Assembly: GCA_023396915.1 (NCBI GenBank)
Contig: JAEWUV010000007.1
Location: 146,077 to 210,076, forward strand
Direction: 5' to 3'
Source: Candidatus Parcubacteria bacterium
GTDB lineage: Bacteria > Patescibacteriota > Microgenomatia > UBA12405
Length of the DNA stretch: 64,000 nucleotides
Shown here: positions 14,628 to 42,511 of the stretch, piece by piece
Numbering within the stretch: the stretch's first letter is position 1
Layout of the letters: every line of letters starts with the position of its first letter
Notes under the pieces: model-generated
Databases searched by the model: none
The model's input: the letters and a program-made list of their open reading frames with translations, nothing else
Told to the model about the DNA's origin: nothing
Made by a program: the position numbers and the translations under genes

Positions 14628-14706
14628 TCTTCTTCTTGTCTCGGCCATTCCACCTCAACCCCAAACAAGTGGGGGAGCCAACAATCACGTCAAAACTATG
14701 ATATAA
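14614..14706 (+). pseudogene. 30-codon remnant of a GT4 glycosyltransferase 5' end (MNKPSLLLVSAIPPQPQTSGGANNHVKTMI*)
   Basis: ATG overlaps the GT2 stop. LLLVSAI..PQTSGG matches the N-terminus of the downstream truncated GT4 (16126-). Terminates after 30 codons. Confidence 0.6.
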
Positions 14707-14733: not shown

Positions 14734-14753
14734 AATTTTTGATATGATTTTAT

Positions 14754-14811
14754 AAAAACTTGCGAAAACGTGCAATTTCTATATAAAAAAACTTGCGAAA
14801 ACGTGCAATTT
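14754..14811. repeat. two perfect 25-bp direct repeats (AAAAACTTGCGAAAACGTGCAATTT) with 33-bp period, 17 nt upstream of the ATPase start
   Basis: Copies at 14754-14778 and 14787-14811. Each contains a TTGC-N8-GCAA partial dyad. Confidence 0.8.
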
Positions 14812-14827
14812 TTACTAAAATTTTAAT

Positions 14828-16123
14828 ATGAAACGAGATATCACAAGTAAATTATTGGAATGGAAAAACTCAGAAAACCGTAAACCATTAATTTTAACCG
14901 GCGCCAGACAAGTTGGGAAAACCTGGATTTTAAAAGAATTTGGCAAGCAATACTATCAAAATACTGCGTACATCATGTTTGAAAAAAACGAAAACATGAA
15001 AAAATTATTTGACGGATCTCTGTCGCCCAAAGATTTATTACCTTTTCTTCAAGCAGAGACTAACATCTCAATAGACCCAAAAAATACATTGATAATTTTT
15101 GATGAAATCCAAGCCGTCCCCAATGCCATTACCTCTCTTAAGTTTTTCAACGAGGAAGCACCGGAATATTCAATTATTGCTGCCGGTTCCACGTTAGGAG
15201 TTACCTTACACAATAGTGGATCTTTTCCCGTTGGTAAGGTAAATTTTATGACTCTTTATCCTATGACGTTTTTGGAATTTTTAGATGCCAACAATGAAAA
15301 ACAATTAACAGATTTAATAAAAAATACAAAAGAGTTATCTTCGATAAATATATTTCACGAAAAATTAGATAAATATCTCAAACAATATTTTTTGATTGGC
15401 GGGATGCCTGAAGTTGTTAAAAAATATATTGAAACAAACAGTTTTGAAGAAGCTCGTACAATTCAAAAACAATTACTTGACTCTTACAACCAAGATTTTT
15501 CCAAATATACAACACCCATAGCTGCAACTAAACTTCAAATGGTTTGGAAATCAATTCCTTCTCAAATAACCAAAGAAAATCGTAAATTTATATATGGAGC
15601 AGTTAAAAATAGTGCCCGAGCCAGAGATTTCGAAACCACTATACAGTGGTTAGTTGACAGTTCATTAGTAAATAAAATTAATCGAGTTAGTCTACCTAAA
15701 CCACCATTAAAAAGTTACGAGGAATTTGAGATTTTTAAGTTATTTCTGCATGATATTGGTTTACTTGGAGCTATGGTTAACGCATCACCAAAATCAATCA
15801 TCAACAATAATAATATTTACACTGAATTTAAAGGAGCATTAGCAGAACAATTTGTTTGTCAGGAGTTAATAGCCTCCGGGATAGAAACATTCTATTGGTC
15901 AGCTAATGACTCAAGACAAGAAATAGATTTCTTGACAGAAAGAAATAATGAAGTTATTCCTATTGAAGTAAAATCAGGAAAAAATTTAACATCAGTTTCA
16001 TTTAATAGATTTATGAAGGCTAACCAGTCAAAATATGGTTATAAAATATCAAATAGGCCTTATATGAATAACAAAAAAATAATAAATTTACCATTATATT
16101 TAACCTCAACAATATCCCAATAA
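14828..16123 (+). CDS. AAA+ ATPase of the AAA_14/DUF4143 family (function unknown)
   Basis: Walker A TGARQVGKT, Walker B LIIFDEIQ, then a C-terminal DUF4143-like region. 431 aa. Confidence 0.7.
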   Translation: MKRDITSKLLEWKNSENRKPLILTGARQVGKTWILKEFGKQYYQNTAYIMFEKNENMKKLFDGSLSPKDLLPFLQAETNISIDPKNTLIIFDEIQAVPNAITSLKFFNEEAPEYSIIAAGSTLGVTLHNSGSFPVGKVNFMTLYPMTFLEFLDANNEKQLTDLIKNTKELSSINIFHEKLDKYLKQYFLIGGMPEVVKKYIETNSFEEARTIQKQLLDSYNQDFSKYTTPIAATKLQMVWKSIPSQITKENRKFIYGAVKNSARARDFETTIQWLVDSSLVNKINRVSLPKPPLKSYEEFEIFKLFLHDIGLLGAMVNASPKSIINNNNIYTEFKGALAEQFVCQELIASGIETFYWSANDSRQEIDFLTERNNEVIPIEVKSGKNLTSVSFNRFMKANQSKYGYKISNRPYMNNKKIINLPLYLTSTISQ

Positions 16124-16125
16124 AA

Positions 16126-17184
16126 AATCTTCTTCTAGTCTCTGCTATTTCACCAACCCCTCAAACCAGTGGGGGATCGGTAAGAATAAAAAACACACTC
16201 GAACAACTTTCAAAATATTACCACGTCGATTTTGTTACTTTTGACGAATCAAAAATTAAAACTCAATCAAAAAAAATAACTTCAAAAATCCCTTATTGGT
16301 TTTCACCTTGGTATAACCCAAAATTAATTTCTCAAATTCAAAAATTAACCTCCGAAAACAAATACGACATTATTCAAATCGAGTTTAGCCAATTACTTTA
16401 TTTAGCTAAATATTTACCCCAAAACACCCGAAAAATCTTCACTGCTCACGACATTTCCACTATTTCTTTTTATCGTCGTGTTTCAGAAGACAATCCATCA
16501 ATTTTAAAAAAAATAATCAGGCTTTTATTTTTTCTTCAAATTTATTTCTACGAAAAAAAATACCTACCAAAATTCGATACTATTATTACTGTTTCCCAAA
16601 AAGACCAACAAACACTACAAAAATGGCTACCAGACAAAAACATAATTTGTTTGGAAAACGGCATTGAAAAAATAAATTTTCTGTCTAAAAAACCATCAAA
16701 AATACTTAAACTTGGCTATATCGGATCCTTTAACCATACTCCAAACTTAAATGCTGTTAAATATTTTTTCGACAAAATCGCCCCGTTATTTAACAAAGAA
16801 AAAATTAAATATGAATTCTACTTAGCCGGAAACAATGATCCTCAATTCATTAAAAACAATTTCCCTAAGGCCATAAATTTAGGAAAAGTAAAATCAGTAA
16901 AGGATTTTTACAAAAAAATCGACTGTCTAATTACCCCGATTTTTGCTGGCTCCGGTTCTCGAATCAAGATTCTTGAAGCGTTAAGTTTTGGTATTCCTGT
17001 CGTTTCCAGCCCTGTTGGTGCCGAAGGAATAAATGTAAAATCCGACTACCTTCAAATAGCCAAAACTCCACAAGATTATATAAAATACCTTAAAAATCTC
17101 TCCAAAAGCAATCAACAACTCAAAAAAGAACTTAGCCCATTATTATGGACAAACATATTTAAAAAATACCCACAATTTATTTAA
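16126..17184 (+). pseudogene. GT4 glycosyltransferase lacking a start codon (5' end displaced by the ATPase insertion)
   Basis: Frame open from 16072 with no ATG/GTG before the TTG at 16651. Translation NLLLVSAISPTPQTSGGSVRIKNTLEQL... through to the C-terminal GT4 motif EALSFGIPVVSSPVGAEG. Confidence 0.6.
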
Positions 17185-25209: not shown

Positions 25210-26934
25210 ATGGACGGAGAAAGCCGCTATCAACCCGGAAAAAACACTGCCAAAGAAAAACAACCAGAAACAGTGTCAAAATTCAATACTGAAATCCAAA
25301 GTCTCATTGATCAAAAGCCTTTTGAACCAAGAATAGAACAACTTGCACTTATGGATCTACAAAAAGGACTTAAAACATATCGAATTGATGGAAAGACTGC
25401 CCCCACTTTATCCCTTTGGAATATGGCTTCAGAAACAGAAAAGATAAATGGAAACAACTTAGTTAGTGTAGGAATAAAAAAACATGGAAGATTAATTCAA
25501 AAGGCAGCAATTTATATCGCCAACAGGGTCAAAGATGGAACTATTACATTAGGGATGGACAGAGCCCAAATCTTTTCAGAACAATTATTCAACTATGGTA
25601 AAAGTTTAAATGAAGGTAGGTCAAATACCAGAACAACACCATTCGAGCAAATAGTTGAAAAAGAAGAGCTTGATCAACAACAAAGCCAAATAATCGAACA
25701 TTTATTAGGTATCGATACTTTTTTAGAAACACCAACCAGCCAAAATGATATTGAACTACAAAGAAAATCAATACTAAGAAAATTTTTTATTTCTGTCGGG
25801 GATAATCAAAGAAACATGGCCGTATTATCACAAGATTCAGATATTGTCCAAGATCAATATCAAGCTAACCAAATAATAGAAGCTATCAAAATAGCCATTG
25901 AAAAACCAGCCAGAGAATTAGAAGGTAGTATCATTCTACAGGGAATAAAACAATCACAAGAAACTATGTCATTAGTACCTTTACATGTAAAGGAGTTTTT
26001 TGACTGGCTTGGAATAAAAACAGAAGGTCTCTTTTGTTCCTTAACCATACCAAAATATAGAAGTAAACTTGAAAAGCATCGTAATAATATAGATCTTTCT
26101 AATGAAAAAATCGGAGAAAAAGAAATATCAACCGCAAAAAAAATTAGAAACGCTACTACCATTCTCACTGGTAAAGAAAGAGCCAAAAATCATAATCGAA
26201 TTCATAAGCCAACCAATAAAGAATATCATGTTCTAGCCACCACCTCAGGTGCTATCTGGATGCAACAGGCTGGAATAAATTGTGCCATTGCAAATATCCC
26301 TGACGCTTCTGGTATATTTTTTATGACCACCGACGGTAGAGTCTTTTCAATGGATATGACCAATCCAACAAAAACCTTTGATGTAACTGAAAATGTTCAA
26401 AACTCCCCATTGTTTAAACAATCTCTCAAAGCTGAAGGATTAAGAATGAGAAACCCAAAACAAACCGGTGAAAAAGCATATCTGACACTATATCCTCCAA
26501 AAGACGGTCGAAGGATTTTAACCCTTTTTAATAAAGCTATCGAATATCGAAATGCACCTCCTATAGAAGGAAAAGATCGCAATCACGCTATGGACAAATT
26601 TCGAAATTATCAATTATCTATCAAAACTTTTGAAAAAATTATTACTCCTAATCTCCAAGATGAAGATATTTGGTATCAATATGCTGTAACCCTTATGAAA
26701 AGTGTTACTGATGAACAGTTTAAAAATACAAATATAATATCAAACCAAAACAAAAATTATTCTCTTCAAAAAGCTATCGACGCCTTTTTTCAAACCACTC
26801 AATTAAATCATAACAACCACCAAGCGTATACTCATATTGCTGAAATTCTTGAAATGAATTCTCTTGACCAAGAGGCAGCCAAATTCCGTAAACAAGCAAG
26901 AGAAGCAAAGAAAAGGCAAAAACTCGTCGCCTAG
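25210..26934 (+). CDS. hypothetical 574-aa soluble protein in GC-rich island; function unknown
   Basis: Long ORF whose GC content is clearly higher than the flanks. No recognisable catalytic motifs. Helical, repeat-like C-terminus. Confidence 0.5.
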   Translation: MDGESRYQPGKNTAKEKQPETVSKFNTEIQSLIDQKPFEPRIEQLALMDLQKGLKTYRIDGKTAPTLSLWNMASETEKINGNNLVSVGIKKHGRLIQKAAIYIANRVKDGTITLGMDRAQIFSEQLFNYGKSLNEGRSNTRTTPFEQIVEKEELDQQQSQIIEHLLGIDTFLETPTSQNDIELQRKSILRKFFISVGDNQRNMAVLSQDSDIVQDQYQANQIIEAIKIAIEKPARELEGSIILQGIKQSQETMSLVPLHVKEFFDWLGIKTEGLFCSLTIPKYRSKLEKHRNNIDLSNEKIGEKEISTAKKIRNATTILTGKERAKNHNRIHKPTNKEYHVLATTSGAIWMQQAGINCAIANIPDASGIFFMTTDGRVFSMDMTNPTKTFDVTENVQNSPLFKQSLKAEGLRMRNPKQTGEKAYLTLYPPKDGRRILTLFNKAIEYRNAPPIEGKDRNHAMDKFRNYQLSIKTFEKIITPNLQDEDIWYQYAVTLMKSVTDEQFKNTNIISNQNKNYSLQKAIDAFFQTTQLNHNNHQAYTHIAEILEMNSLDQEAAKFRKQAREAKKRQKLVA

Positions 26935-26944
26935 ATATGGAAAG

Positions 26945-27028
26945 GGGTCGCGACGTTGGTACGGGAAAGTAGGGGGCGGCAAGCATACGCTAGCCACATC
27001 TATCTTCCGACACAACGTCACGACCCGC
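26945..27028. other. GC-rich (~55% GC) structured non-coding segment with a 14-bp imperfect inverted repeat enclosing ~55 nt
   Basis: GGGTCGCGACGTTG (26946-26959) pairs with CAACGTCACGACCC (27014-27027). No ORF; lies between convergent genes. Confidence 0.4.
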
Positions 27029-27168
27029 AATCCGCAGAAAACCTTTTAAGATAACCAATAATAAGCCACCAGCGCCGCCAGACACACACCGACCGAGACC
27101 AAAAATACAAGCAGAACTCGAAGGGTTCCCCTACAGTCTTCTTTTTTTTCCTCTTGTGATCTTTTCAC

Positions 27169-31899: not shown

Positions 31900-33045
31900 T
31901 TAAAAACTAACGCCCTGCCCTGTCAAGGGAAGGGATGGGGAAGGGTTTGTCTTTTCCCAAGAAAACTCTTCTCGACCAAAATGACCATACTTGGCTGTTT
32001 GTTGATATATCGGCCTTTTTAAATCAAATTTTTCAATAATCCCTTTAACCGACAAATCCATTAAATTCCAAGCAAAATCCTCAATAATTTTGATATCTTT
32101 TTTAGCTGTTCTAAAAGTTTCGATTGATTTTACTATCGGTTCTCTTTGACCAATCACATAAGCTAGTTGTACTTCACATCTATCGGCCAAACCAGCCGCC
32201 ACCAAATTTTTAGCCAAAAATCTGGCCGCATAAGCTGCACTTCGATCTACTTTGCTCGGATCTTTTCCCGAAAAACAACCACCACCAATTCTACCCATTC
32301 CCCCGTAAGTATCTACTACAATTTTTCTACCAGTCACTCCGGTGTCACTTGCTGGCCCTCCGATTTCCCAAATTCCGGTTCCATTAAAAATTACCTTATC
32401 TTTAGGTATTTTAGTTAAATCATATTTTTCCAACACCGGCAAAACTGCCAAATTATATAAATCTTGCTTAACTTCTTCTGTTTTATTTTCTCTTCCAAAC
32501 GGTTTAGCTAAAACCACCGTATCAACCCCCATTACTTTTCCATTATCATAAATTACACTCACTTCTGCTTTACCATCAGGTCTTAGATAATTTAATTTTC
32601 CAAATTGCAGTTCATCCATTTTTCGGCATAACTCATGCGCCAAAACTATCGGCAACGGCATTAACTGAGGAGTCTCATTACAGGCATAACCAAACATCAT
32701 TCCTTGATCATCAGCTCCGTCATTATCCGCCCCAACAGCAATATCTTTTGACTGCTCGTGAACCAAAACTTCAATATCGGCATTTTCATCAAAATTAAAA
32801 ATTGAGCTTATAAAACCAATTTCTCTAATCTTTTTTTTGGCAATCTCTTTATAGTCCAAACTTTGTTTACAACTTACTTCACCCGCCATTACCACTTTAT
32901 TAACAGTCACCAAGGTTTCCAAGGCTACTCTTGATTCTTTGTCAACCATTAACGCTGCATCCAAAACAGCATCAGAGATTTGATCACAAATTTTATCCGG
33001 ATGACCACTACAAACCGACTCTGAAGTAAATAAAGAATAATTCAT
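31900..33045 (-). CDS. metK: S-adenosylmethionine synthetase, with C-terminal 12 aa (PSPSLPLTGQGVSF region) encoded by the 37-bp repeat
   Basis: SESVCSGHPDKICDQISDAVLDA, GGGCFSGKDPSKVDRSAAYAAR, AKYGHFGR..WEKT are canonical MetK motifs. Confidence 0.9.
   Translation of the reverse strand: MNYSLFTSESVCSGHPDKICDQISDAVLDAALMVDKESRVALETLVTVNKVVMAGEVSCKQSLDYKEIAKKKIREIGFISSIFNFDENADIEVLVHEQSKDIAVGADNDGADDQGMMFGYACNETPQLMPLPIVLAHELCRKMDELQFGKLNYLRPDGKAEVSVIYDNGKVMGVDTVVLAKPFGRENKTEEVKQDLYNLAVLPVLEKYDLTKIPKDKVIFNGTGIWEIGGPASDTGVTGRKIVVDTYGGMGRIGGGCFSGKDPSKVDRSAAYAARFLAKNLVAAGLADRCEVQLAYVIGQREPIVKSIETFRTAKKDIKIIEDFAWNLMDLSVKGIIEKFDLKRPIYQQTAKYGHFGREEFSWEKTNPSPSLPLTGQGVSF
31912..31948 (+). repeat. 37-bp GC-rich element copy 1 (GCCCTGCCCTGTCAAGGGAAGGGATGGGGAAGGGTTT), inside metK 3' end
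   Basis: Exact match to the consensus shared with copies at 34719, 35760 and 38560. Confidence 0.9.
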
Positions 33046-34041: not shown

Positions 34042-35295
34042 ATGTCAAAAATTCTTTGTCTTAGTCATATTTTCCCCCCGGCAATAGATGGGGGATCTCG
34101 GGTCGTCTACAAACTCGGCCAATATTTTCAAAACCAAGGTAATCAAGTTTTATTTCTTTCTTCTGACTGTTCTTCCACCGACGATTTCACCAAAAAAGTT
34201 TCCCTTTTTAAGGGAAAAACCGGTTTATCCGGAAAGGGTTTCATCAAAATTCCTGTCTATCATCATCTCCGCCGCTTTTTAAAATTTATTAATCTTTTTA
34301 TTCCTCCAAAAACCTATCTCCATCAGCTACTCAAAGTTTTTCAAAAAGGACCTATTTTTAAATTTATACCTTTTATAAAAACCACTTTCAAAATTATAAA
34401 ATTTAAACCTGACTTAATTATCGCCGGACCACTCCCCACCACCATTATTCTCTACGCCAATTTTCTCAAAAAAATATCTACGATCTACAATCTACGACCT
34501 AAAATCTTACTTAATGCTTCTTTTCACCCCACCGACCACGACTTTCACTGTCTTCCTTTAATTAAAACCTTACAAAAAGCCGACTACCTTTGGACCCTGA
34601 CCCAATTCGAAACTAACTATTTTATAAAAAATTTTAATATTAATCCAAAAAAAATAATTCTTGCCGGCAACGGCATCGACCAATCATTTTTAAAAACTAA
34701 TAAACAAAAAAAAGTAGTGCCCTGCCCTGTCAAGGGAAGGGGTAGGGAAGGGTTTCGTCTTTTATTTATCGGCTCACTTTCCGCCCATAAAGGCCTTGAT
34801 ACCCTTATCACTTCTTTCTCTAACATCTATCGTCCAAAATCTAATATCTCGTTAACCATTGCCGGTCAAAAAACTCTCTACTACCCCCAAATCAAAAAAC
34901 AAATCCAAACACTTCCTCAAAATATTAAATCCAAAATAAAATTTATTTTTAATTTCTCCCAGAACAAATTAAGCCAAATTATCGACAACTGTGATATTTT
35001 AATTTTACCCTCAAAACAGGAAAGTTTTGGCTTAGTTATTATTGAGGCTTGGGCCAGACAAAAACCGGTTATTGTTAGCGATATTCCTTCACTTTCTGAA
35101 ATAACCCAAAAAGCCAATGGGGGTCTAACCTTCAAACTCAACAATTTTTCCAATCTAAATCAAAAAATATCAAAATTATTAAAGAACTCCAAACTTGCCA
35201 ATCAACTTGGCAAAAATGGTTTTAATTATGTTAAAAATAATTACACATGGAACATAGTCGGAAGAAAAATAAAAGAAGAAATCTCATTATATTAG
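34042..35295 (+). CDS. GT4 glycosyltransferase (carries repeat copy 2 at its inter-domain linker)
   Basis: MSKILCLSHIFPPAIDGGSRVV...; C-domain start LLFIGSLSAHKG; ...LPSKQESFGLVIIEAWA. Confidence 0.8.
   Translation: MSKILCLSHIFPPAIDGGSRVVYKLGQYFQNQGNQVLFLSSDCSSTDDFTKKVSLFKGKTGLSGKGFIKIPVYHHLRRFLKFINLFIPPKTYLHQLLKVFQKGPIFKFIPFIKTTFKIIKFKPDLIIAGPLPTTIILYANFLKKISTIYNLRPKILLNASFHPTDHDFHCLPLIKTLQKADYLWTLTQFETNYFIKNFNINPKKIILAGNGIDQSFLKTNKQKKVVPCPVKGRGREGFRLLFIGSLSAHKGLDTLITSFSNIYRPKSNISLTIAGQKTLYYPQIKKQIQTLPQNIKSKIKFIFNFSQNKLSQIIDNCDILILPSKQESFGLVIIEAWARQKPVIVSDIPSLSEITQKANGGLTFKLNNFSNLNQKISKLLKNSKLANQLGKNGFNYVKNNYTWNIVGRKIKEEISLY
34719..34755 (+). repeat. 37-bp GC-rich element copy 2 (translated VPCPVKGRGREGF)
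   Basis: GCCCTGCCCTGTCAAGGGAAGGGGTAGGGAAGGGTTT. Confidence 0.9.
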
Positions 35296-35723
35296 CTTTT
35301 ATTGGTTTGCTGATTATCATTGGTATAATTTCACTTTTGCTTAAAAAGCAAAATACCTTTCCAAAAAGTTTAGGCGTAGTCATCAAAAACAACGGCTACT
35401 ATCTAGAAGTGGCTCAAAGTAACCAAGAAACAAAAAAAGGGTTATCCAACAGAGACCAGCTTTGCCCTAATTGCGGTATGCTTTTTGTTTTTAACAAGGA
35501 AGATCAACATGATTTTTGGATGAAGGATACCCATATTCCGCTAGACATTATTTGGATTAATTCAAAAAAAGAAATTGTCAAAATTATTGTCTCCGCCAAA
35601 ACTGACTCTGAAACCATCTATAGCAACAAAGCTCCCGCTCAATACGTTATTGAACTGCCAGCTAACGAAAGTCTAAAACTCAACCTGCAAGTAGGGGACA
35701 CCATTCCTATCTTTGACCAGTGA
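35247..35723 (+). CDS. DUF192-domain protein
   Basis: LCPNCGMLFVF...DFWMKDTHIPLDIIWIN...YVIELPAN matches the DUF192 pattern. The listed start overlaps the upstream GT by 48 nt, so the true start may be downstream. Confidence 0.6.
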   Translation: MEHSRKKNKRRNLIILAFIGLLIIIGIISLLLKKQNTFPKSLGVVIKNNGYYLEVAQSNQETKKGLSNRDQLCPNCGMLFVFNKEDQHDFWMKDTHIPLDIIWINSKKEIVKIIVSAKTDSETIYSNKAPAQYVIELPANESLKLNLQVGDTIPIFDQ

Positions 35724-36775
35724 AAGTTAAACAAAAGTTTACTAACAAAAAGAAGAAGTGCCCTGCCCTGTCAAGGGAAGGGATAGGGAAGGGTTTATCT
35801 TTTTCTATAGTCATTCCCAATTACAACGGAAAAAATTTTTTACCGAATTGTCTTCAATCCCTACTTCAATCAATCAAAAATTGTCCTAAGTCAAATTTTG
35901 AAATTATCATTGTCGACAATGGTTCCACCGACAACAGCATTCAATTAGTCAAAGATTTTTTTACCAAACATAAACTCCAAAATCTAGAATCTAAAATCTT
36001 ACATTTAGAATCTAACACCGGTTTCGCTTTTGCCGTTAATCAGGGTATTAAAATTGCCAAATATCCATATGTTTGTGTTTGTAACAATGATTTAAAATTA
36101 AAAAACGATTGGTTTAAAATTATTAGCCAAGAAATCAAAAACAACCAAAAAAATCATAAAATTACTACTTTTTTTAGTACTGTTCTCAACTATAATGGCA
36201 CTAAATTTGAATCCCAAGGTTTTGAATTTAATTACTCCGGCAAATGCACCAACATCAGCAACGATAAAATATTTTTAGCATCTAGCATCTTGCATCTTAA
36301 ATCTAATTTAGTATGGGGTGCTCCTGCTGCCCTTATAGTTTATAAAAAGGAAATTATCCAAAAAATAGGCGCCTTTGATTCTGACTTTTTTGCCTACGAA
36401 GAAGATGTCGATTTAAACCTCAGACTTAAAAATTTCGGTTATCAAACCCTATATATTCCCCAAGCTATTTGTTACCATCTTGGCGGCGCCACCAGTAATA
36501 GAATGGGGAATTTTAGAAACAGAATGGATGCCAAAAATTGGATTTATATTATCATCAAAAACTACCCCGCTAAATTTATTTTTAAATATTTCTTTCCTAT
36601 CATAGAACAAAGGCTCAGAAATTTATCATCTTTAATCAAAAATACGTCAATTAAAAAACTTCCAAAAGACATTATCGCTACCTATGGCGAAGTCTTATTC
36701 AACCTACCCAAAATGTTCCAAAAACGCCGCTATACCCAAAAAATGTTAAAATCAAACCATGATTATTGGACTTGA
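35720..36775 (+). CDS. family 2 glycosyltransferase (GTG start; repeat copy 3 encoded in N-terminal extension)
   Basis: SFSIVIPNYNGKNFLPNCLQSL...IIVDNGSTDNS. Confidence 0.75.
   Translation: MKVKQKFTNKKKKCPALSREGIGKGLSFSIVIPNYNGKNFLPNCLQSLLQSIKNCPKSNFEIIIVDNGSTDNSIQLVKDFFTKHKLQNLESKILHLESNTGFAFAVNQGIKIAKYPYVCVCNNDLKLKNDWFKIISQEIKNNQKNHKITTFFSTVLNYNGTKFESQGFEFNYSGKCTNISNDKIFLASSILHLKSNLVWGAPAALIVYKKEIIQKIGAFDSDFFAYEEDVDLNLRLKNFGYQTLYIPQAICYHLGGATSNRMGNFRNRMDAKNWIYIIIKNYPAKFIFKYFFPIIEQRLRNLSSLIKNTSIKKLPKDIIATYGEVLFNLPKMFQKRRYTQKMLKSNHDYWT
35760..35796 (+). repeat. 37-bp GC-rich element copy 3 (translated CPALSREGIGKGL, a different frame)
   Basis: GCCCTGCCCTGTCAAGGGAAGGGATAGGGAAGGGTTT. Confidence 0.9.
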
Positions 36776-37892
36776 TATTTCCTCTGTTGCTTATCAGACA
36801 GGAGTAAGCAATTATACCCTTAACTTAGTCAAAAACTTAATATCTATTGATAAAACCAACCACTACAAACTTTTCTTTTCCTCTCTCAGGCTACCTCTTC
36901 CCTCAGAAATTATTAAACTTAAAAACAATCGTAACGTTACCATATACCATTTTCGACTTCCTCCAACTCTTTTACAAATTCTTTGGAATCAGCTGCGACT
37001 GTTTCCCGTCGAAATGTTTATCGGTAAATGTGATATTTTTCACACCTCAGACTGGACCCAGCCGCCAACATTAAAAGCCAAAACTATTACCACAATTCAC
37101 GATTTAACTCCGTTTCTTTTCCCTCAATGGCACCACCCCAAAGTCATCAACGCCCATCATAATAAAATGTATTGGGCTGCCAAAAAATGTACCAAGTTTA
37201 TTTGTGTATCGAAAAATACTAAAAATGATTTAATCAAACTTTTCCCAAAAATTGACGAATCTAAAACAGAAGTTATTTATGAAGCCGCCGAAAATAAATA
37301 TACCTTGTTTCATAAACTTCCATTAAAAACTCAACAACAAAAAATCTCCTTGATAAAAAAACAATATAACTTAAACGAGTTTATTCTGGCTCAAGGCACC
37401 AGAGAACCTCGTAAAAATCTAGACAGACTAGTCAAAGCTTTCCTTAAATTCAAACAGGAAAATCCAAAAAACAAAATTCAACTGGCCATTACCGGCAAAT
37501 ACGGTTGGGGAAAAGATATTTCTACCTCTGACTCCGATGTAAAAATTCTTGGATTTATCCCAGAAATTAACATGGTTGCTCTACATGCCGCCGCCACTTG
37601 TCTTGTTTATCCTTCCCTTTACGAAGGCTTTGGATTACCTATTATTAAATCCTTTACCGTCGGCGTTCCAGTTGTTACCAGCAACAACTCGTCTTTGGCA
37701 GAAATTTCTCAAGATTCCGCTATTTTAGTTAATCCAAATTCAATTAATAATATTCAAAATGCCATAAAAAAAATAATTTCTTCCCCAAAACTCAGAGACG
37801 AATTATCCCAAAAAGGACTTAAGGTGGCCAATAAATTCAGCTGGGAAAAAACCGCCCAACAAACTTTACAAGTTTACAATTCATTATGTTAA
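36759..37892 (+). CDS. GT4 glycosyltransferase
   Basis: MIIGLDISSVAYQTGVSNYTLNL...; C-terminal LYEGFGLPIIKSFTVGVPVVTSNNSSLAEI. Confidence 0.8.
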   Translation: MIIGLDISSVAYQTGVSNYTLNLVKNLISIDKTNHYKLFFSSLRLPLPSEIIKLKNNRNVTIYHFRLPPTLLQILWNQLRLFPVEMFIGKCDIFHTSDWTQPPTLKAKTITTIHDLTPFLFPQWHHPKVINAHHNKMYWAAKKCTKFICVSKNTKNDLIKLFPKIDESKTEVIYEAAENKYTLFHKLPLKTQQQKISLIKKQYNLNEFILAQGTREPRKNLDRLVKAFLKFKQENPKNKIQLAITGKYGWGKDISTSDSDVKILGFIPEINMVALHAAATCLVYPSLYEGFGLPIIKSFTVGVPVVTSNNSSLAEISQDSAILVNPNSINNIQNAIKKIISSPKLRDELSQKGLKVANKFSWEKTAQQTLQVYNSLC

Positions 37893-39034
37893 TTGGAATT
37901 GACGGCAACGAGGCTAATATTTCTCAAAGGGTCGGAGTCGGGCAATATGCCCTTAAATTACTTTGGCATTTGTATAAATTAGATAAAAAAAATAAATATT
38001 TAATTTATTTAAAAGAAAAACCCTCAAAAGAACTACCTCCAACCACCGAAAACTGGCAGTATCGTGTTTTTGGCCCTAGCAAAATGTGGACCAGACTAGC
38101 CTTACCTTTCCACCTGTTCACAGACAAAATTCCACTTGATTTATTCTTTTCTCCCAGTCATTACTCACCAAAATTTTCTCCCTTTCCCACCATCCCCACT
38201 ATTCATGATATCGGTTATCTTCAATTCCAAGACCAATTTACTAAAAAAGACCTCTACCAGCTAATCAATTGGACCAAAGAATCCATAAAAAAAGCCAGTC
38301 ATATTATTACTGTTTCCAAATTTTCCCAAAACGAAATTATCAAAACTTACAACGTTAACCCAAATAAAATAAGTATCGCTTATAACGGAGTAGAGGAACC
38401 ACCTAAAATAAATCCAAAAAACCAAGCTCAAATATTGTCTTCCTACAACCTCGTGTCTAAAAACTACTACCTATACTTAGGGACCTTAAAGCCTAATAAG
38501 AATATCCCATTTTTAATCAAAGGATATTCAAAATTCATTAAAAAATTCACTAATTCAACACCCTGCCCTGTCAAGGGAAGGGTTGGGGAAGGGTTTGGTC
38601 CTAAATTAGTTATTGCCGGCAAGAAAGGCTGGCTTTTTGATGAAATTTTTAAAACAGTCAAACAAGAAAAATTGGAGGATAAAGTTATTTTCACTGATTT
38701 TCTTGATAACTTACAAAAATGGACCTTATATCAAAACGCCATTGCTACAGTTTTACCCAGCACGTACGAAGGTTTTGGTATCCCAGCCATTGAATCTATG
38801 AAAACCGGTACACCAGTAATAGTTTCTGACATTCCGCCATTCAAAGAAGTGGTGGGGGATTGTGGCCTAATTATCGACCCCAACGATACTGCTGACTTAT
38901 GTCAAAAAATGATAAATATAAATAATCCTAATATTAGGCAAAAGTATTCACACCTAGGCAAAGTGCAAGCTGATAAATTCACTTGGAACTCTACCGCCAA
39001 ATCAGTCTTAAAAGTCTTTGAAAAATTCTGCTAA
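37886..39034 (+). CDS. GT4 glycosyltransferase (carries repeat copy 4 at its inter-domain linker)
   Basis: MLIGIDGNEANISQRVGVGQYAL...; KLVIAGKKG; TYEGFGIPAIESMKTGTPVIVSDIPPFKEV. Confidence 0.8.
   Translation: MLIGIDGNEANISQRVGVGQYALKLLWHLYKLDKKNKYLIYLKEKPSKELPPTTENWQYRVFGPSKMWTRLALPFHLFTDKIPLDLFFSPSHYSPKFSPFPTIPTIHDIGYLQFQDQFTKKDLYQLINWTKESIKKASHIITVSKFSQNEIIKTYNVNPNKISIAYNGVEEPPKINPKNQAQILSSYNLVSKNYYLYLGTLKPNKNIPFLIKGYSKFIKKFTNSTPCPVKGRVGEGFGPKLVIAGKKGWLFDEIFKTVKQEKLEDKVIFTDFLDNLQKWTLYQNAIATVLPSTYEGFGIPAIESMKTGTPVIVSDIPPFKEVVGDCGLIIDPNDTADLCQKMININNPNIRQKYSHLGKVQADKFTWNSTAKSVLKVFEKFC
38560..38596 (+). repeat. 37-bp GC-rich element copy 4 (translated TPCPVKGRVGEGF; first base A instead of G)
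   Basis: ACCCTGCCCTGTCAAGGGAAGGGTTGGGGAAGGGTTT. Confidence 0.9.
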
Positions 39035-41099: not shown

Positions 41100-42511
41100 A
41101 AATAAATATATTCCGTTCACTTCTGGCTATAATTCTTATTTTTATTCCGCTGTACCCTAAATTTCCCTTACTAAGTATCAAGGGCACATACGTAGCCGTC
41201 CGCCTTGACGACATTGTTATTGCCGCTGCTGCCTTAATTTGGCTTGTCTATCAGATTAAAAATAAATTTCCCGTTTTTAAACTAAAAATTACCAGACTAT
41301 TTTTAGTCTATTTTATGGCCATTTTAGTTAGTTTTCTTAATGCTTTTTTAGTCTACCAAACTGAACCAACTAACATTCTTTTACTCCATGTTTTTCGTCG
41401 TTTCGAATATATTTCTGTCTTCTTTATTGCTATAAACGCCATTAAAAACCAAAAAGATTTCAAATTTACTTACATCTTTTTTCTTTTATCTACTGCTTTG
41501 GTGACTTTCTACGGTTTTGGCCAAAAATACCTCAAATTCCCGGTAATTTCCACCATGAATGAGGAGTTTTCCAAAGGTCAACTTATTCAGATGAATATCT
41601 GGACCCGAATTAGTTCCACTTTTGCCGGACATTACGACTTGGCCGCTTTTCTTAGTGTAGCTCTTATCATAATTCTAGGTGCCGCCCTGATTACCAAAAA
41701 TAGAATTATTAAAATTACTAGTTTTATAGTTTGGATTCCTGCTTACTATATCCTCACTCTCACTGCCTCACGGGTTTCTACTTTTGCTTTTTTAGGCGGA
41801 ATCATTATCACCCTTACATTGCTTAAAAAATATTGGTGGATAGTTCCAGTTACAATTTTAGTTATTTTTAGTATTTTTAATTCAGAAGATCTCAATCAAC
41901 GTCTGTTAGCCACTATCCCTGCTCTTAAAAATCAATTTACTTCAAACCAAACAACTGAAAACACCCCAACACCAACAGCAACCCTTATTCCTACTCAAAC
42001 TACAACAACTCCCGTAGCCAAGCCAACTAAAACTAATCTCAGCCCTACCCCCACAATTTATCGCCACCCGGTCGAAGAATATCCCGTCGCTGACGCCGAC
42101 GTCGGTGTTGCCAGATCCGGAGAGATCCGCTTCAACGCCGAATGGCCCCGAGCTATCAATGCTTGGCGTAAAAACATCTTTGTCGGCAGTGGTCTTGGAT
42201 CAATCACCTTAGCCACCGATAATGACTACTTACGCTGCTTAGGTGAAAGTGGACTGCTAGGGTTAATAACCTTTAGTGCCATTTTCATCTTTTTTATAGC
42301 AAAAACTTTACCTCTACTTTTTAAAAAATCATCTAACATCTATCATCTAACATCTATCATCTTTCTCGGTGGTTTATTAGCCACACTGGCTAATGCCGTT
42401 TTTATTGATGTTTTTGAAGCCTCAAAAACAGCTTATCTTTTTTGGATTATGATGGGACTTTATTACCAATCGTTAACTATTAAACAAGAAAATGAAAAAT
42501 CGCAAACGTAA
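41084..42511 (+). CDS. O-antigen ligase/polymerase-like (Wzy_C family) membrane protein with Thr/Pro-rich loop
   Basis: 475 aa, ~10 TM, large loop with TTENTPTPTATLIPTQTTTTPVAKPTKTNLSPTPT. Confidence 0.5.
   Translation: MFKNIKINIFRSLLAIILIFIPLYPKFPLLSIKGTYVAVRLDDIVIAAAALIWLVYQIKNKFPVFKLKITRLFLVYFMAILVSFLNAFLVYQTEPTNILLLHVFRRFEYISVFFIAINAIKNQKDFKFTYIFFLLSTALVTFYGFGQKYLKFPVISTMNEEFSKGQLIQMNIWTRISSTFAGHYDLAAFLSVALIIILGAALITKNRIIKITSFIVWIPAYYILTLTASRVSTFAFLGGIIITLTLLKKYWWIVPVTILVIFSIFNSEDLNQRLLATIPALKNQFTSNQTTENTPTPTATLIPTQTTTTPVAKPTKTNLSPTPTIYRHPVEEYPVADADVGVARSGEIRFNAEWPRAINAWRKNIFVGSGLGSITLATDNDYLRCLGESGLLGLITFSAIFIFFIAKTLPLLFKKSSNIYHLTSIIFLGGLLATLANAVFIDVFEASKTAYLFWIMMGLYYQSLTIKQENEKSQT

Follow-up and report, generated by a model that had tools for sequence, protein, structure and literature searches.

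A GC-rich hairpin repeat of 36 nucleotides (nt) occurs four times in a 64-kb stretch of a Candidatus Parcubacteria genome (contig JAEWUV010000007.1, positions 146,077 to 210,076; this whole stretch is called the window below), within one S-adenosylmethionine synthetase gene and three glycosyltransferase (GT) genes. With a probability of roughly 0.68, these four copies are members of a lineage-wide Candidatus Shapirobacteria family of short GC-rich hairpins that resemble REP (repetitive extragenic palindromic) sequences, are probably mobilised as single-stranded DNA and have been filtered by selection to permissive sites. The element would spread, or would have spread, via a single-stranded-DNA route tied to the replication fork, and its catalyst would most likely be a HUH/Y1 transposase that recognises the hairpin and is akin to the REP-associated tyrosine transposases (RAYT). 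Gene-breaking insertions would be purged by selection, and copies would survive between genes, at the ends of genes and in surface loops that are disordered, where they would presumably be translated as a 12-residue insert. Copies could persist at such sites because the unit is 36 nt (12 codons) long, leaves no recognisable target duplication and is stop-free in four of the six frames. The repeat family with its distribution, the filled and empty sites among orthologues, the compensated changes in the hairpin, the strand bias, the placement in loops or at termini and the RAYT-family genes of the lineage are all observed. Movement of this element by a RAYT, the single-strand mechanism, translation of the insert and present activity are each points that we infer.

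The window is AT-rich (~33% GC), its GC skew is negative throughout and its genes are split ~50:50 between the strands. A repeat search of the window recovered a 77-nt direct-repeat family with four members (31885, 34692, 35733 and 38533), which share a 22-nt core, CCCTGCCCTGTCAAGGGAAGGG. This core occurs exactly four times, always on the + strand (31913, 34720, 35761 and 38561), and is absent from all 100 dinucleotide-preserving shuffles (chance expectation 0); the GC-rich repeat that an earlier sequence-only reading had noticed in the GT genes is therefore real, and the metK copy at 31913 lies outside the range considered there (34719-38596). Alignment of the copies reveals an invariant 36-nt block, CCCTGCCCTGTCAAGGGAAGGG-NTN-GGGAAGGGTTT, variable only at the NTN triplet, and outside this block the flanks are mutually dissimilar. 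The copies share one orientation, are spaced 1-2.8 kb apart and span 6.7 kb of the 64 kb, a clustering with p≈0.004 in a scan-statistic estimate under uniform placement. All four lie within open reading frames (ORFs), and in each case the frame stays open. The hosts, the copies and one further insert are as follows.

31900..33045, - strand: metK, S-adenosylmethionine synthetase (ORF and Pfam), host of copy 1
31913..31948, + strand: element copy 1, CCCTGCCCTGTCAAGGGAAGGG-ATG-GGGAAGGGTTT, in the last 16 codons of metK (- strand), read as NPSPSLPLTGQG
34042..35295, + strand: GT4a, GT-B fold family-4 glycosyltransferase, host of copy 2 and of a 45-nt insert
34198..34242, + strand: distinct 45-nt mini-insert in the GT4a N-domain loop, peptide VSLFKGKTGLSGKGF, with two short hairpins and a AAAGGGTTT tail
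34720..34755, + strand: element copy 2, GT4a amino acids (aa) 227-238, read as PCPVKGRGREGF
35720..36775, + strand: GT2 glycosyltransferase with a GTG start, host of copy 3
35761..35796, + strand: element copy 3, in the GT2 N-terminal extension at aa ~14-26, in a different frame, CPALSREGIGKGL
37886..39034, + strand: GT4b, GT-B fold family-4 glycosyltransferase, host of copy 4
38561..38596, + strand: element copy 4, GT4b aa 226-237, read as PCPVKGRVGEGF

The surrounding locus had been credited with more than 10 paralogous GTs in 15 kb, which is nearly right, as the syntenic annotation contains nine GT2/GT4 genes and one Bac_transf gene.

The position of the copies within their host proteins is best seen in the two family-4 enzymes, for which confident AlphaFold2 models were obtained (predicted local distance difference test score (pLDDT) 88.9 and predicted template modelling score (pTM) 0.88 for GT4a, 87.6 and 0.86 for GT4b), both of which match GT-B family-4 structures, for example MshA, BshA, GlgM and PimA. 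In the GT4a model the insert lies in a coil (217-237) that leads from the N-domain into the first C-domain strand (238-243). In GT4b the C-domain starts with a strand at 194-198 (YYLYL), followed by a helix at 207-224 and a second strand at 240-244 (KLVIA), and the insert occupies the loop between this helix and the second strand; the Pfam Glycos_transf_1 match begins as early as aa 191, upstream of the insert. The sequence-only reading had placed the repeat precisely at the domain boundary of both enzymes, directly before the first C-domain strand, and had proposed structure prediction as a check of the linker location. The models confirm the linker for GT4a, at the N/C junction, and refute it for GT4b, where the strand taken as the first is in fact the second and the copy lies within the C-domain. 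The expectation that linker or terminal placement would be structurally tolerated is borne out, since both modelled inserts are disordered coils between confident secondary-structure elements (pLDDT<50 at GT4a 229-234 and GT4b 228-235), and the other two copies are found in an N-terminal and a C-terminal tail. The GT2 copy belongs to a 24-residue N-terminal extension that is missing from the syntenic orthologue in locus L075, which has an ATG start 24 codons later, and the MetK copy (aa ~366-378 of 381) follows directly after the end of Pfam S-AdoMet_synt_C at aa 365. The GT4a loop at aa 56-63, which is encoded by the 45-nt mini-insert and not by the 36-nt element, is likewise disordered (pLDDT<50). 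Furthermore, GT4a orthologues carry the 36-nt element at the junction, in the loop of the N-domain at aa ~56 or, in P0133, at both places, and the GT2 orthologues of L033 and L044 have it in an internal loop. The common denominator of these sites is a permissive loop, not a domain border, and the nearness to a domain border in one glycosyltransferase would probably be a by-product of the selective filter, a survivorship effect rather than a property of the element.

The hairpin of the element has a stem of 9 bp, interrupted at its centre by a G·A mismatch, and a GTCA loop; a variable NTNG follows the stem (TTAG, TTGG, TCGG, ATGG, GTAG and others), and the G-rich tail ends in GGGTTT. When 74 fetched loci and the window were scanned for a 9-nt stem, a GTCA loop and a second 9-nt stem, four main stem types were recovered, namely CCCTGCCCT/AGGGAAGGG (82 copies), CCTTGCCCT/AGGGAAAGG (10 copies), CCCCGTCTT/AAGAAGGGG (3 copies, with three compensated pairs) and CCCCACCCT/AGGGAGGGG, a single copy and the sole type without the central mismatch. 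Differences between the multi-copy types are compensated on both arms, while the G·A mismatch and the GTCA loop are retained. Control loop sequences gave 0-4 matches in the same scan, and as a negative control 329 kb of unrelated RAYT loci (80 metagenomic loci, distant RAYTs of 27-44% identity) contained no such hairpins. Looser criteria reveal a superfamily with a common (C/T)T-GTCA-A(G/A) hairpin tip and, in most families, the GGGTTT end; some members have a second hairpin. This hairpin superfamily may reach beyond Shapirobacteria, as L038, L046, L061, L072 and L073, contigs of 56-61% GC from other bacteria, hold the exact 22-mer together with related hairpins of the form CCCTTCCTT-GTCA-AGGGAAGGG.

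In family 1 the G-rich strand contains four G3 tracts, and ViennaRNA assigns -16.7 kcal/mol to a three-tier G-quadruplex versus -13 to -18 kcal/mol to the hairpin. The quadruplex was rejected as the conserved feature because family 3 is unable to form one and yet keeps the hairpin, which is thus the feature that is conserved. On the - strand three of the four window copies are terminator-like, the metK copy forming a hairpin followed by a T-run at the 3' end of the gene. A general role as outward promoter was rejected, as a sigma-70 scan found no site at any element, though the complement contains TTGACA. A known RNA family was also rejected as the identity of the element, with no relevant Rfam match in the whole window at the gathering threshold or in the locus at E≤1.

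Beyond the window, the 22-mer core was found in 74 stretches of GTDB species-representative genomes, with up to ~12 exact-core copies per metagenome-assembled genome (MAG). Nearly all carriers are Candidatus Shapirobacteria MAGs, or third-party annotation (TPA) MAGs with genes 70-78% identical to those of the window. Of the 83 copies, about 46 fall within ORFs 150 aa or longer; these copies stand in either orientation to their gene and use four reading frames (PCPVKGR.., PALSREG.., KPFPNPSLDRAG and NPS..LPLTGQG), and the stop-containing frames were never seen in gene interiors. Outside the window, approximately 8 of some 46 intragenic copies belong to orthologues of its GT genes; hosts other than GTs include ValRS, TsaD, a TsaC/TsaE fusion, TatD and MetK, and copies occur in intergenic DNA as well. 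Because several frames, both orientations and varied hosts are used, the constraint acts on DNA and not on the peptide. Copies in other loci are singletons rather than inverted doublets, and viral contigs gave no element match and hence no sign of phage carriage. In the TsaD orthologues of L014, L021, L029 and L071 the element occupies one site (SGGHTKIILM[insert]..VGETLDD) in two different reverse-strand frames across genomes, which implies either independent hits or frame-restoring indels. Several of the AT-rich TPA MAGs that carry the element (L002, L004, L011, L022, L041 and other CAY*/CAZ* loci) are titled 'uncultured Gammaproteobacteria' or 'Pseudomonadales', and they encode GT4 orthologues with ~73-77% identity to the window proteins, for example P0007 (L022 contig) and P0016 (L051 contig); these titles are probably wrong.

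Comparison of orthologues reveals filled and empty sites. Among 120 GT4b orthologues, the two closest, P0002 (85% identity) and P0003 (81%), both of 370 aa, lack exactly the 12 residues, and some more distant ones do carry them. Two loci, L076 (at 85% nt identity) and the syntenic L075, supplied empty-site DNA for GT4b; in L075 the GT2 site is empty as well. The gene order of L075 is that of the window except that metK is absent: in the window metK sits between the LPG_synthase_TM and epimerase genes, and in L075 (3429-3454) these are 25 nt apart, so that copy 1, exactly at the metK 3' end, coincides with the metK indel junction. No target-site duplication is visible in the flanks, and the flank logos contain no strong target motif, only a C at -2 and a T-rich 5' side. 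IS200/IS605-family elements, which move by Y1 transposition, produce no target duplication, and the flanks are consistent with a process of this kind.

The same loops accommodate a variety of inserts. The GT4a junction of L075 has the CCCCGTCTT variant, in position and length matching the window copy, and the GT4a junction and the GT4b loop each host both family 1 and family 3 among orthologues, at the exact same nucleotide position. In several orthologues the GT4a N-domain loop holds the 36-nt element in place of the 45-nt mini-insert, and in other orthologues these loops hold other GC-rich mini-inserts, among them TPRLVKEGDGGRL, SSLHQGRMSEGQVG and VSLFKGKTGLSGKGF, the last of which fills the junction loop of the GT4a orthologues P0126, P0150, P0157 and P0179. 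In addition, an AT-rich repeat, TCTAACATCTATC..., occurs in the window at 34819-34849 and 42332-42362 and encodes SNIY(R/H).. peptides; related SNIQHLTS and STIYNLKT peptides occupy the same GT4a and GT4b loops in orthologues without the GC-rich element, and this repeat may be another family of short inserts.

The orientation of the element is strongly polar. For 69 of 78 copies, the genome strand that bears the element's G-rich strand is the C-rich one; once orthologous sites are merged and local skew is used, this holds at 59 of 64 AT-rich sites (59:5; p=9e-13), and the variant families are biased in the same direction. Gene direction does not explain the bias, because roughly 19 intragenic copies are co-oriented with their gene against 27 opposed, and because the genes of the window are evenly split although its skew is negative throughout. 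Under the customary assignment of strands, the GTCA strand would lie on the lagging strand and its complement on the lagging-strand template.

Candidate enzymes are encoded in the same genomes. Three Y1_Tnp/RAYT-like ORFs are present in element-bearing MAGs, in L053 (4983-5450), L017 (1225-1755) and L034 (4722-5036, truncated). They were found through weak tblastn matches (E 0.16-0.34) to E. coli YafM and IS200 TnpA, and were then confirmed by Pfam and NCBIfam: the L053 and L017 ORFs exceed the Pfam Y1_Tnp threshold, and their best NCBIfam match is 'REP-associated tyrosine transposase' (REP_Tyr_transpos) at E ~1e-16, under the equivalog cut-off. A canonical copy of the element lies 65 nt (L034), ~300 nt (L017) and ~790 nt (L053) upstream of the RAYT-like gene, always on the opposite strand. 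L053-type RAYTs form a Shapirobacteria clade, with members named RayT by JGI, and reside in a conserved synteny, S20-aaRS-TatD-RAYT...TsaD-TsaC/E. The RAYT of this type is flanked by classical REPs, GTAG-GGGTTTGGCTTGCCCAAACCC, at L053 4940-5480, L158 2925-3470, L161 2860-3500 and L162 2960-3000; L161 has three tandem copies upstream of the gene, and the TAG stop codon of the Shapirobacteria RAYT gene is part of the downstream GTAG. The RAYT-like ORFs also contain GC-rich palindromes just past the HUH motif (L034 4980-5040 and L017 1500-1560), for example GGGGCGTATTGCAATACGCCCC, read as RGVLQYAPT, and the L034 ORF ends or shifts frame at its palindrome. The nearest database relatives of the L034-type RAYT (P0333, P0307 and P0327) have contexts that are not Shapirobacteria-like, the neighbours of P0333 carrying Por_Secre_tail. 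Involvement of a RAYT is plausible, and the L034 type would be the best candidate partner.

By analogy, the element would work most like a REP and behave in proteins like the palindromic elements of Rickettsia. REP sequences and REPINs, their inverted-pair arrangement, are mobilised by RAYTs (PMC3116915, PMC3337134, PMC5581495). Like them, the window element is a GC-rich imperfect palindrome of ~36 nt with many dispersed copies, several families per lineage and conservation in related species, RAYT-family genes are found in the same genomes, one directly beside a copy, and no target duplication is visible. Unlike REPs, which are extragenic by definition, most copies are intragenic and in-frame (~46/83; 4/4 in the window), and their orientation shows a strong bias with respect to the strand of replication. 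The IS200/IS605 family (TnpA, HUH/Y1) has similar hairpin-defined ends, absence of target duplication and replication-coupled orientation, and enzymes of this superfamily exist in the lineage; the element differs in that it contains no transposase gene, is a single hairpin instead of distinct left and right ends, and has no conserved tetranucleotide target that could be found. Rickettsia palindromic elements (RPE), reportedly described by Ogata et al. in 2000, are the closest parallel within proteins. They are mentioned in PMC1458961 and PMC10969869. The likeness lies in a palindromic repeat that is in-frame in many unrelated genes of a small-genome bacterium, in different frames, at surface-exposed or structurally tolerated positions, and also intergenic. 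RPEs are roughly 100-150 bp long, in contrast to the 36-nt (12-residue) Shapirobacteria unit, and their host belongs to an unrelated phylum; the present element stands out as GC-rich from an AT-rich genome, is markedly biased towards one replication strand, and comprises different families that are found repeatedly at one and the same nucleotide position of orthologous loops. Length (36 nt) and taxon (Candidatus Shapirobacteria) exclude membership in the RPE. Organelle genomes harbour GC clusters and palindromic elements (for example in Volvox, PMC2670323, and coding palindromes, PMC6649704), which are also short GC-rich hairpins that spread in an AT-rich genome and can sit in coding sequence without destroying it, but they are organellar, their mobilisation is unknown or different, and they are not known to be linked to a Y1 transposase.

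Several observations weigh against a RAYT-mobilised, selection-filtered repeat. The element has no conserved GTAG (or GTGG) tetranucleotide, although the REPs that flank RAYTs in this lineage do have GTAG, and its copies are singletons without the inverted-pair layout of REPINs. The best-sampled RAYT clade, that of L053, is flanked by this different classical REP and not by the GTCA element, the window contains no RAYT gene in its 64 kb, and among RAYT loci fetched independently of the element only one of three species has a GTCA hairpin within 3 kb. Since independent RAYT loci are mostly without the element, the link between enzyme and element rests mainly on L034 and L017. The identity of the leading strand is assumed from the GC-skew convention. 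Insertion boundaries cannot be fixed, as the empty sites of L075 and L076 are too diverged, the closest being only 85% identical. Moreover, the insert is better conserved than its flanks: it is identical in five of the six insert-carrying GT4b proteins, four of these five being orthologues at ~74-78% identity to the window protein, and differs at one residue in the sixth. This faithful retention hints at selection or gene conversion over plain junk.

The sequence-only reading had offered a different role, in which the element is a GC-rich homology block at GT-B domain borders through which recombination could exchange donor- and acceptor-binding modules between GT paralogues. The matching frame and orientation of the copies in the two GT4 genes, which are 3.8 kb apart, the N/C junction position in GT4a and the concentration of copies in the GT locus and in orthologues of its genes would suit such a role. 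However, the GT4a and GT4b sites are offset by one strand-helix unit, and a crossover between the copies would thus, as judged from the models, either remove the first strand and helix from the C-domain or double them. The element is also found in the N-domain loop of GT4a orthologues, the internal loop of GT2 orthologues, housekeeping genes and intergenic DNA, the flanks are unrelated past 36 nt, and gene order is conserved in L075. A crude check for domain chimerism, in which the identity of N- and C-part to the window protein was compared over 119 orthologues of each GT4, gave no clear outlier (maximum |z| 2.4 and 3.1). With sites that are not structurally equivalent and no chimeras found, module shuffling by the element is unsupported and highly improbable. 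A regulatory function is also very unlikely, in which a G-quadruplex or hairpin in DNA or mRNA would tune expression, termination or phase variation of surface-polysaccharide genes. It would account for the G3 tracts, with a quadruplex that rivals the hairpin in energy, for the terminator-like copies including that at the metK 3' end, and for the clustering in the GT locus, but copies stand in either orientation relative to the host gene and in housekeeping hosts, family 3 occupies the same sites with a hairpin and no quadruplex, and the elements have neither a promoter-like site nor an Rfam match.

The polarity of the element raises the question of whether it could be a host-selected DNA signal read in replication or chromosome segregation, like the FtsK-orienting polar sequences (KOPS) or Chi. 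GGGAAGGG, present twice in the tail, fits the E. coli KOPS consensus, GGGNAGGG, and the orientation bias is very strong with respect to GC skew, the insert is more conserved than the flanking loop and the sequence is common to several species. KOPS and Chi are, however, leading-strand motifs of high density, whereas the element has its G-rich strand on the C-rich strand, by convention the lagging one, which is the opposite polarity, and copies are sparse, with ~1-12 exact-core copies per MAG of roughly 1 Mb and four clustered in 64 kb. Close orthologues are without the element, sister families keep the hairpin but not GGGNAGGG, and an 8-mer would need no 36-nt hairpin with covarying stem pairs; a signal of this type is very unlikely. 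DNA uptake signals for natural competence can be intragenic and lineage-specific, and the element is lineage-restricted, highly conserved, found in coding regions and absent from viral contigs. Known uptake signals occur about once per kb, though, a density that the element falls far short of, and its 36-nt structured stem is not a word of 9-12 nt; together with the strong replication-strand bias and the presence/absence polymorphism at orthologous sites, this renders an uptake function extremely improbable.

A further, unlikely possibility is that a RAYT-type system may use protein loops as fixed landing pads, by homing or targeted replacement onto existing copies, or that the hairpin has a replication-polar role at the level of the host. 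This idea arises from the presence of different families at the same nucleotide position, from the TsaD site that is used in two frames, and from inserts that are kept more faithfully than the host gene. If it were true, a side effect would be a set of cassettes that diversify the loops of surface-polysaccharide enzymes.

If, on the other hand, the preferred reading of a REP-like, selection-filtered hairpin family is correct, REP-type hairpin repeats are not limited to the intergenic DNA of well-studied Proteobacteria, and in a lineage of the Candidate Phyla Radiation with a genome of ~1 Mb such repeats would reside largely within genes and presumably be translated as loop inserts of 12 residues. 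This would parallel the RPE of Rickettsia, with a unit about a third as long and a polarity that very strongly follows the replication strand. Homology-based annotation and alignment of proteins from these genomes will show spurious 'conserved motifs', such as PCPVKGRVGEGF, that derive from DNA repeats, and the inserts naturally chart where GT-B enzymes, aminoacyl-tRNA synthetases and TsaD are permissive. Furthermore, the strand bias provides a testable handle on single-strand transposition in uncultured bacteria. The biology of REP/RAYT systems and of RPE is well documented. A literature search of incomplete coverage found no paper that treats palindromic repeats of Shapirobacteria, RAYTs from Patescibacteria or in-frame repeats within the Candidate Phyla Radiation, which is weak evidence of novelty.

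The window has a few other features of a similar kind. No perfect 8-bp GC-rich hairpin of the classical REP type was found in it, and the whole 64 kb gave no tRNA and no Rfam match at the gathering score. On the - strand, a GC-rich stretch of ~95 nt within 26923-27038 folds into a very stable long hairpin (minimum free energy -55.9 kcal/mol, z -6.0) that matches neither an Rfam family nor a tRNA. A GC-rich intergenic motif (CAACCCC.CAAAC.AGTGGGGGA) is seen in two similar versions, at 14649-14682 and 16150-16182. Finally, a nearby tandem pair of AAAACTTGCGAAAACGTGCAATTT at 14750-14814, upstream of an ORF at 14828, may be an operator or a terminator.

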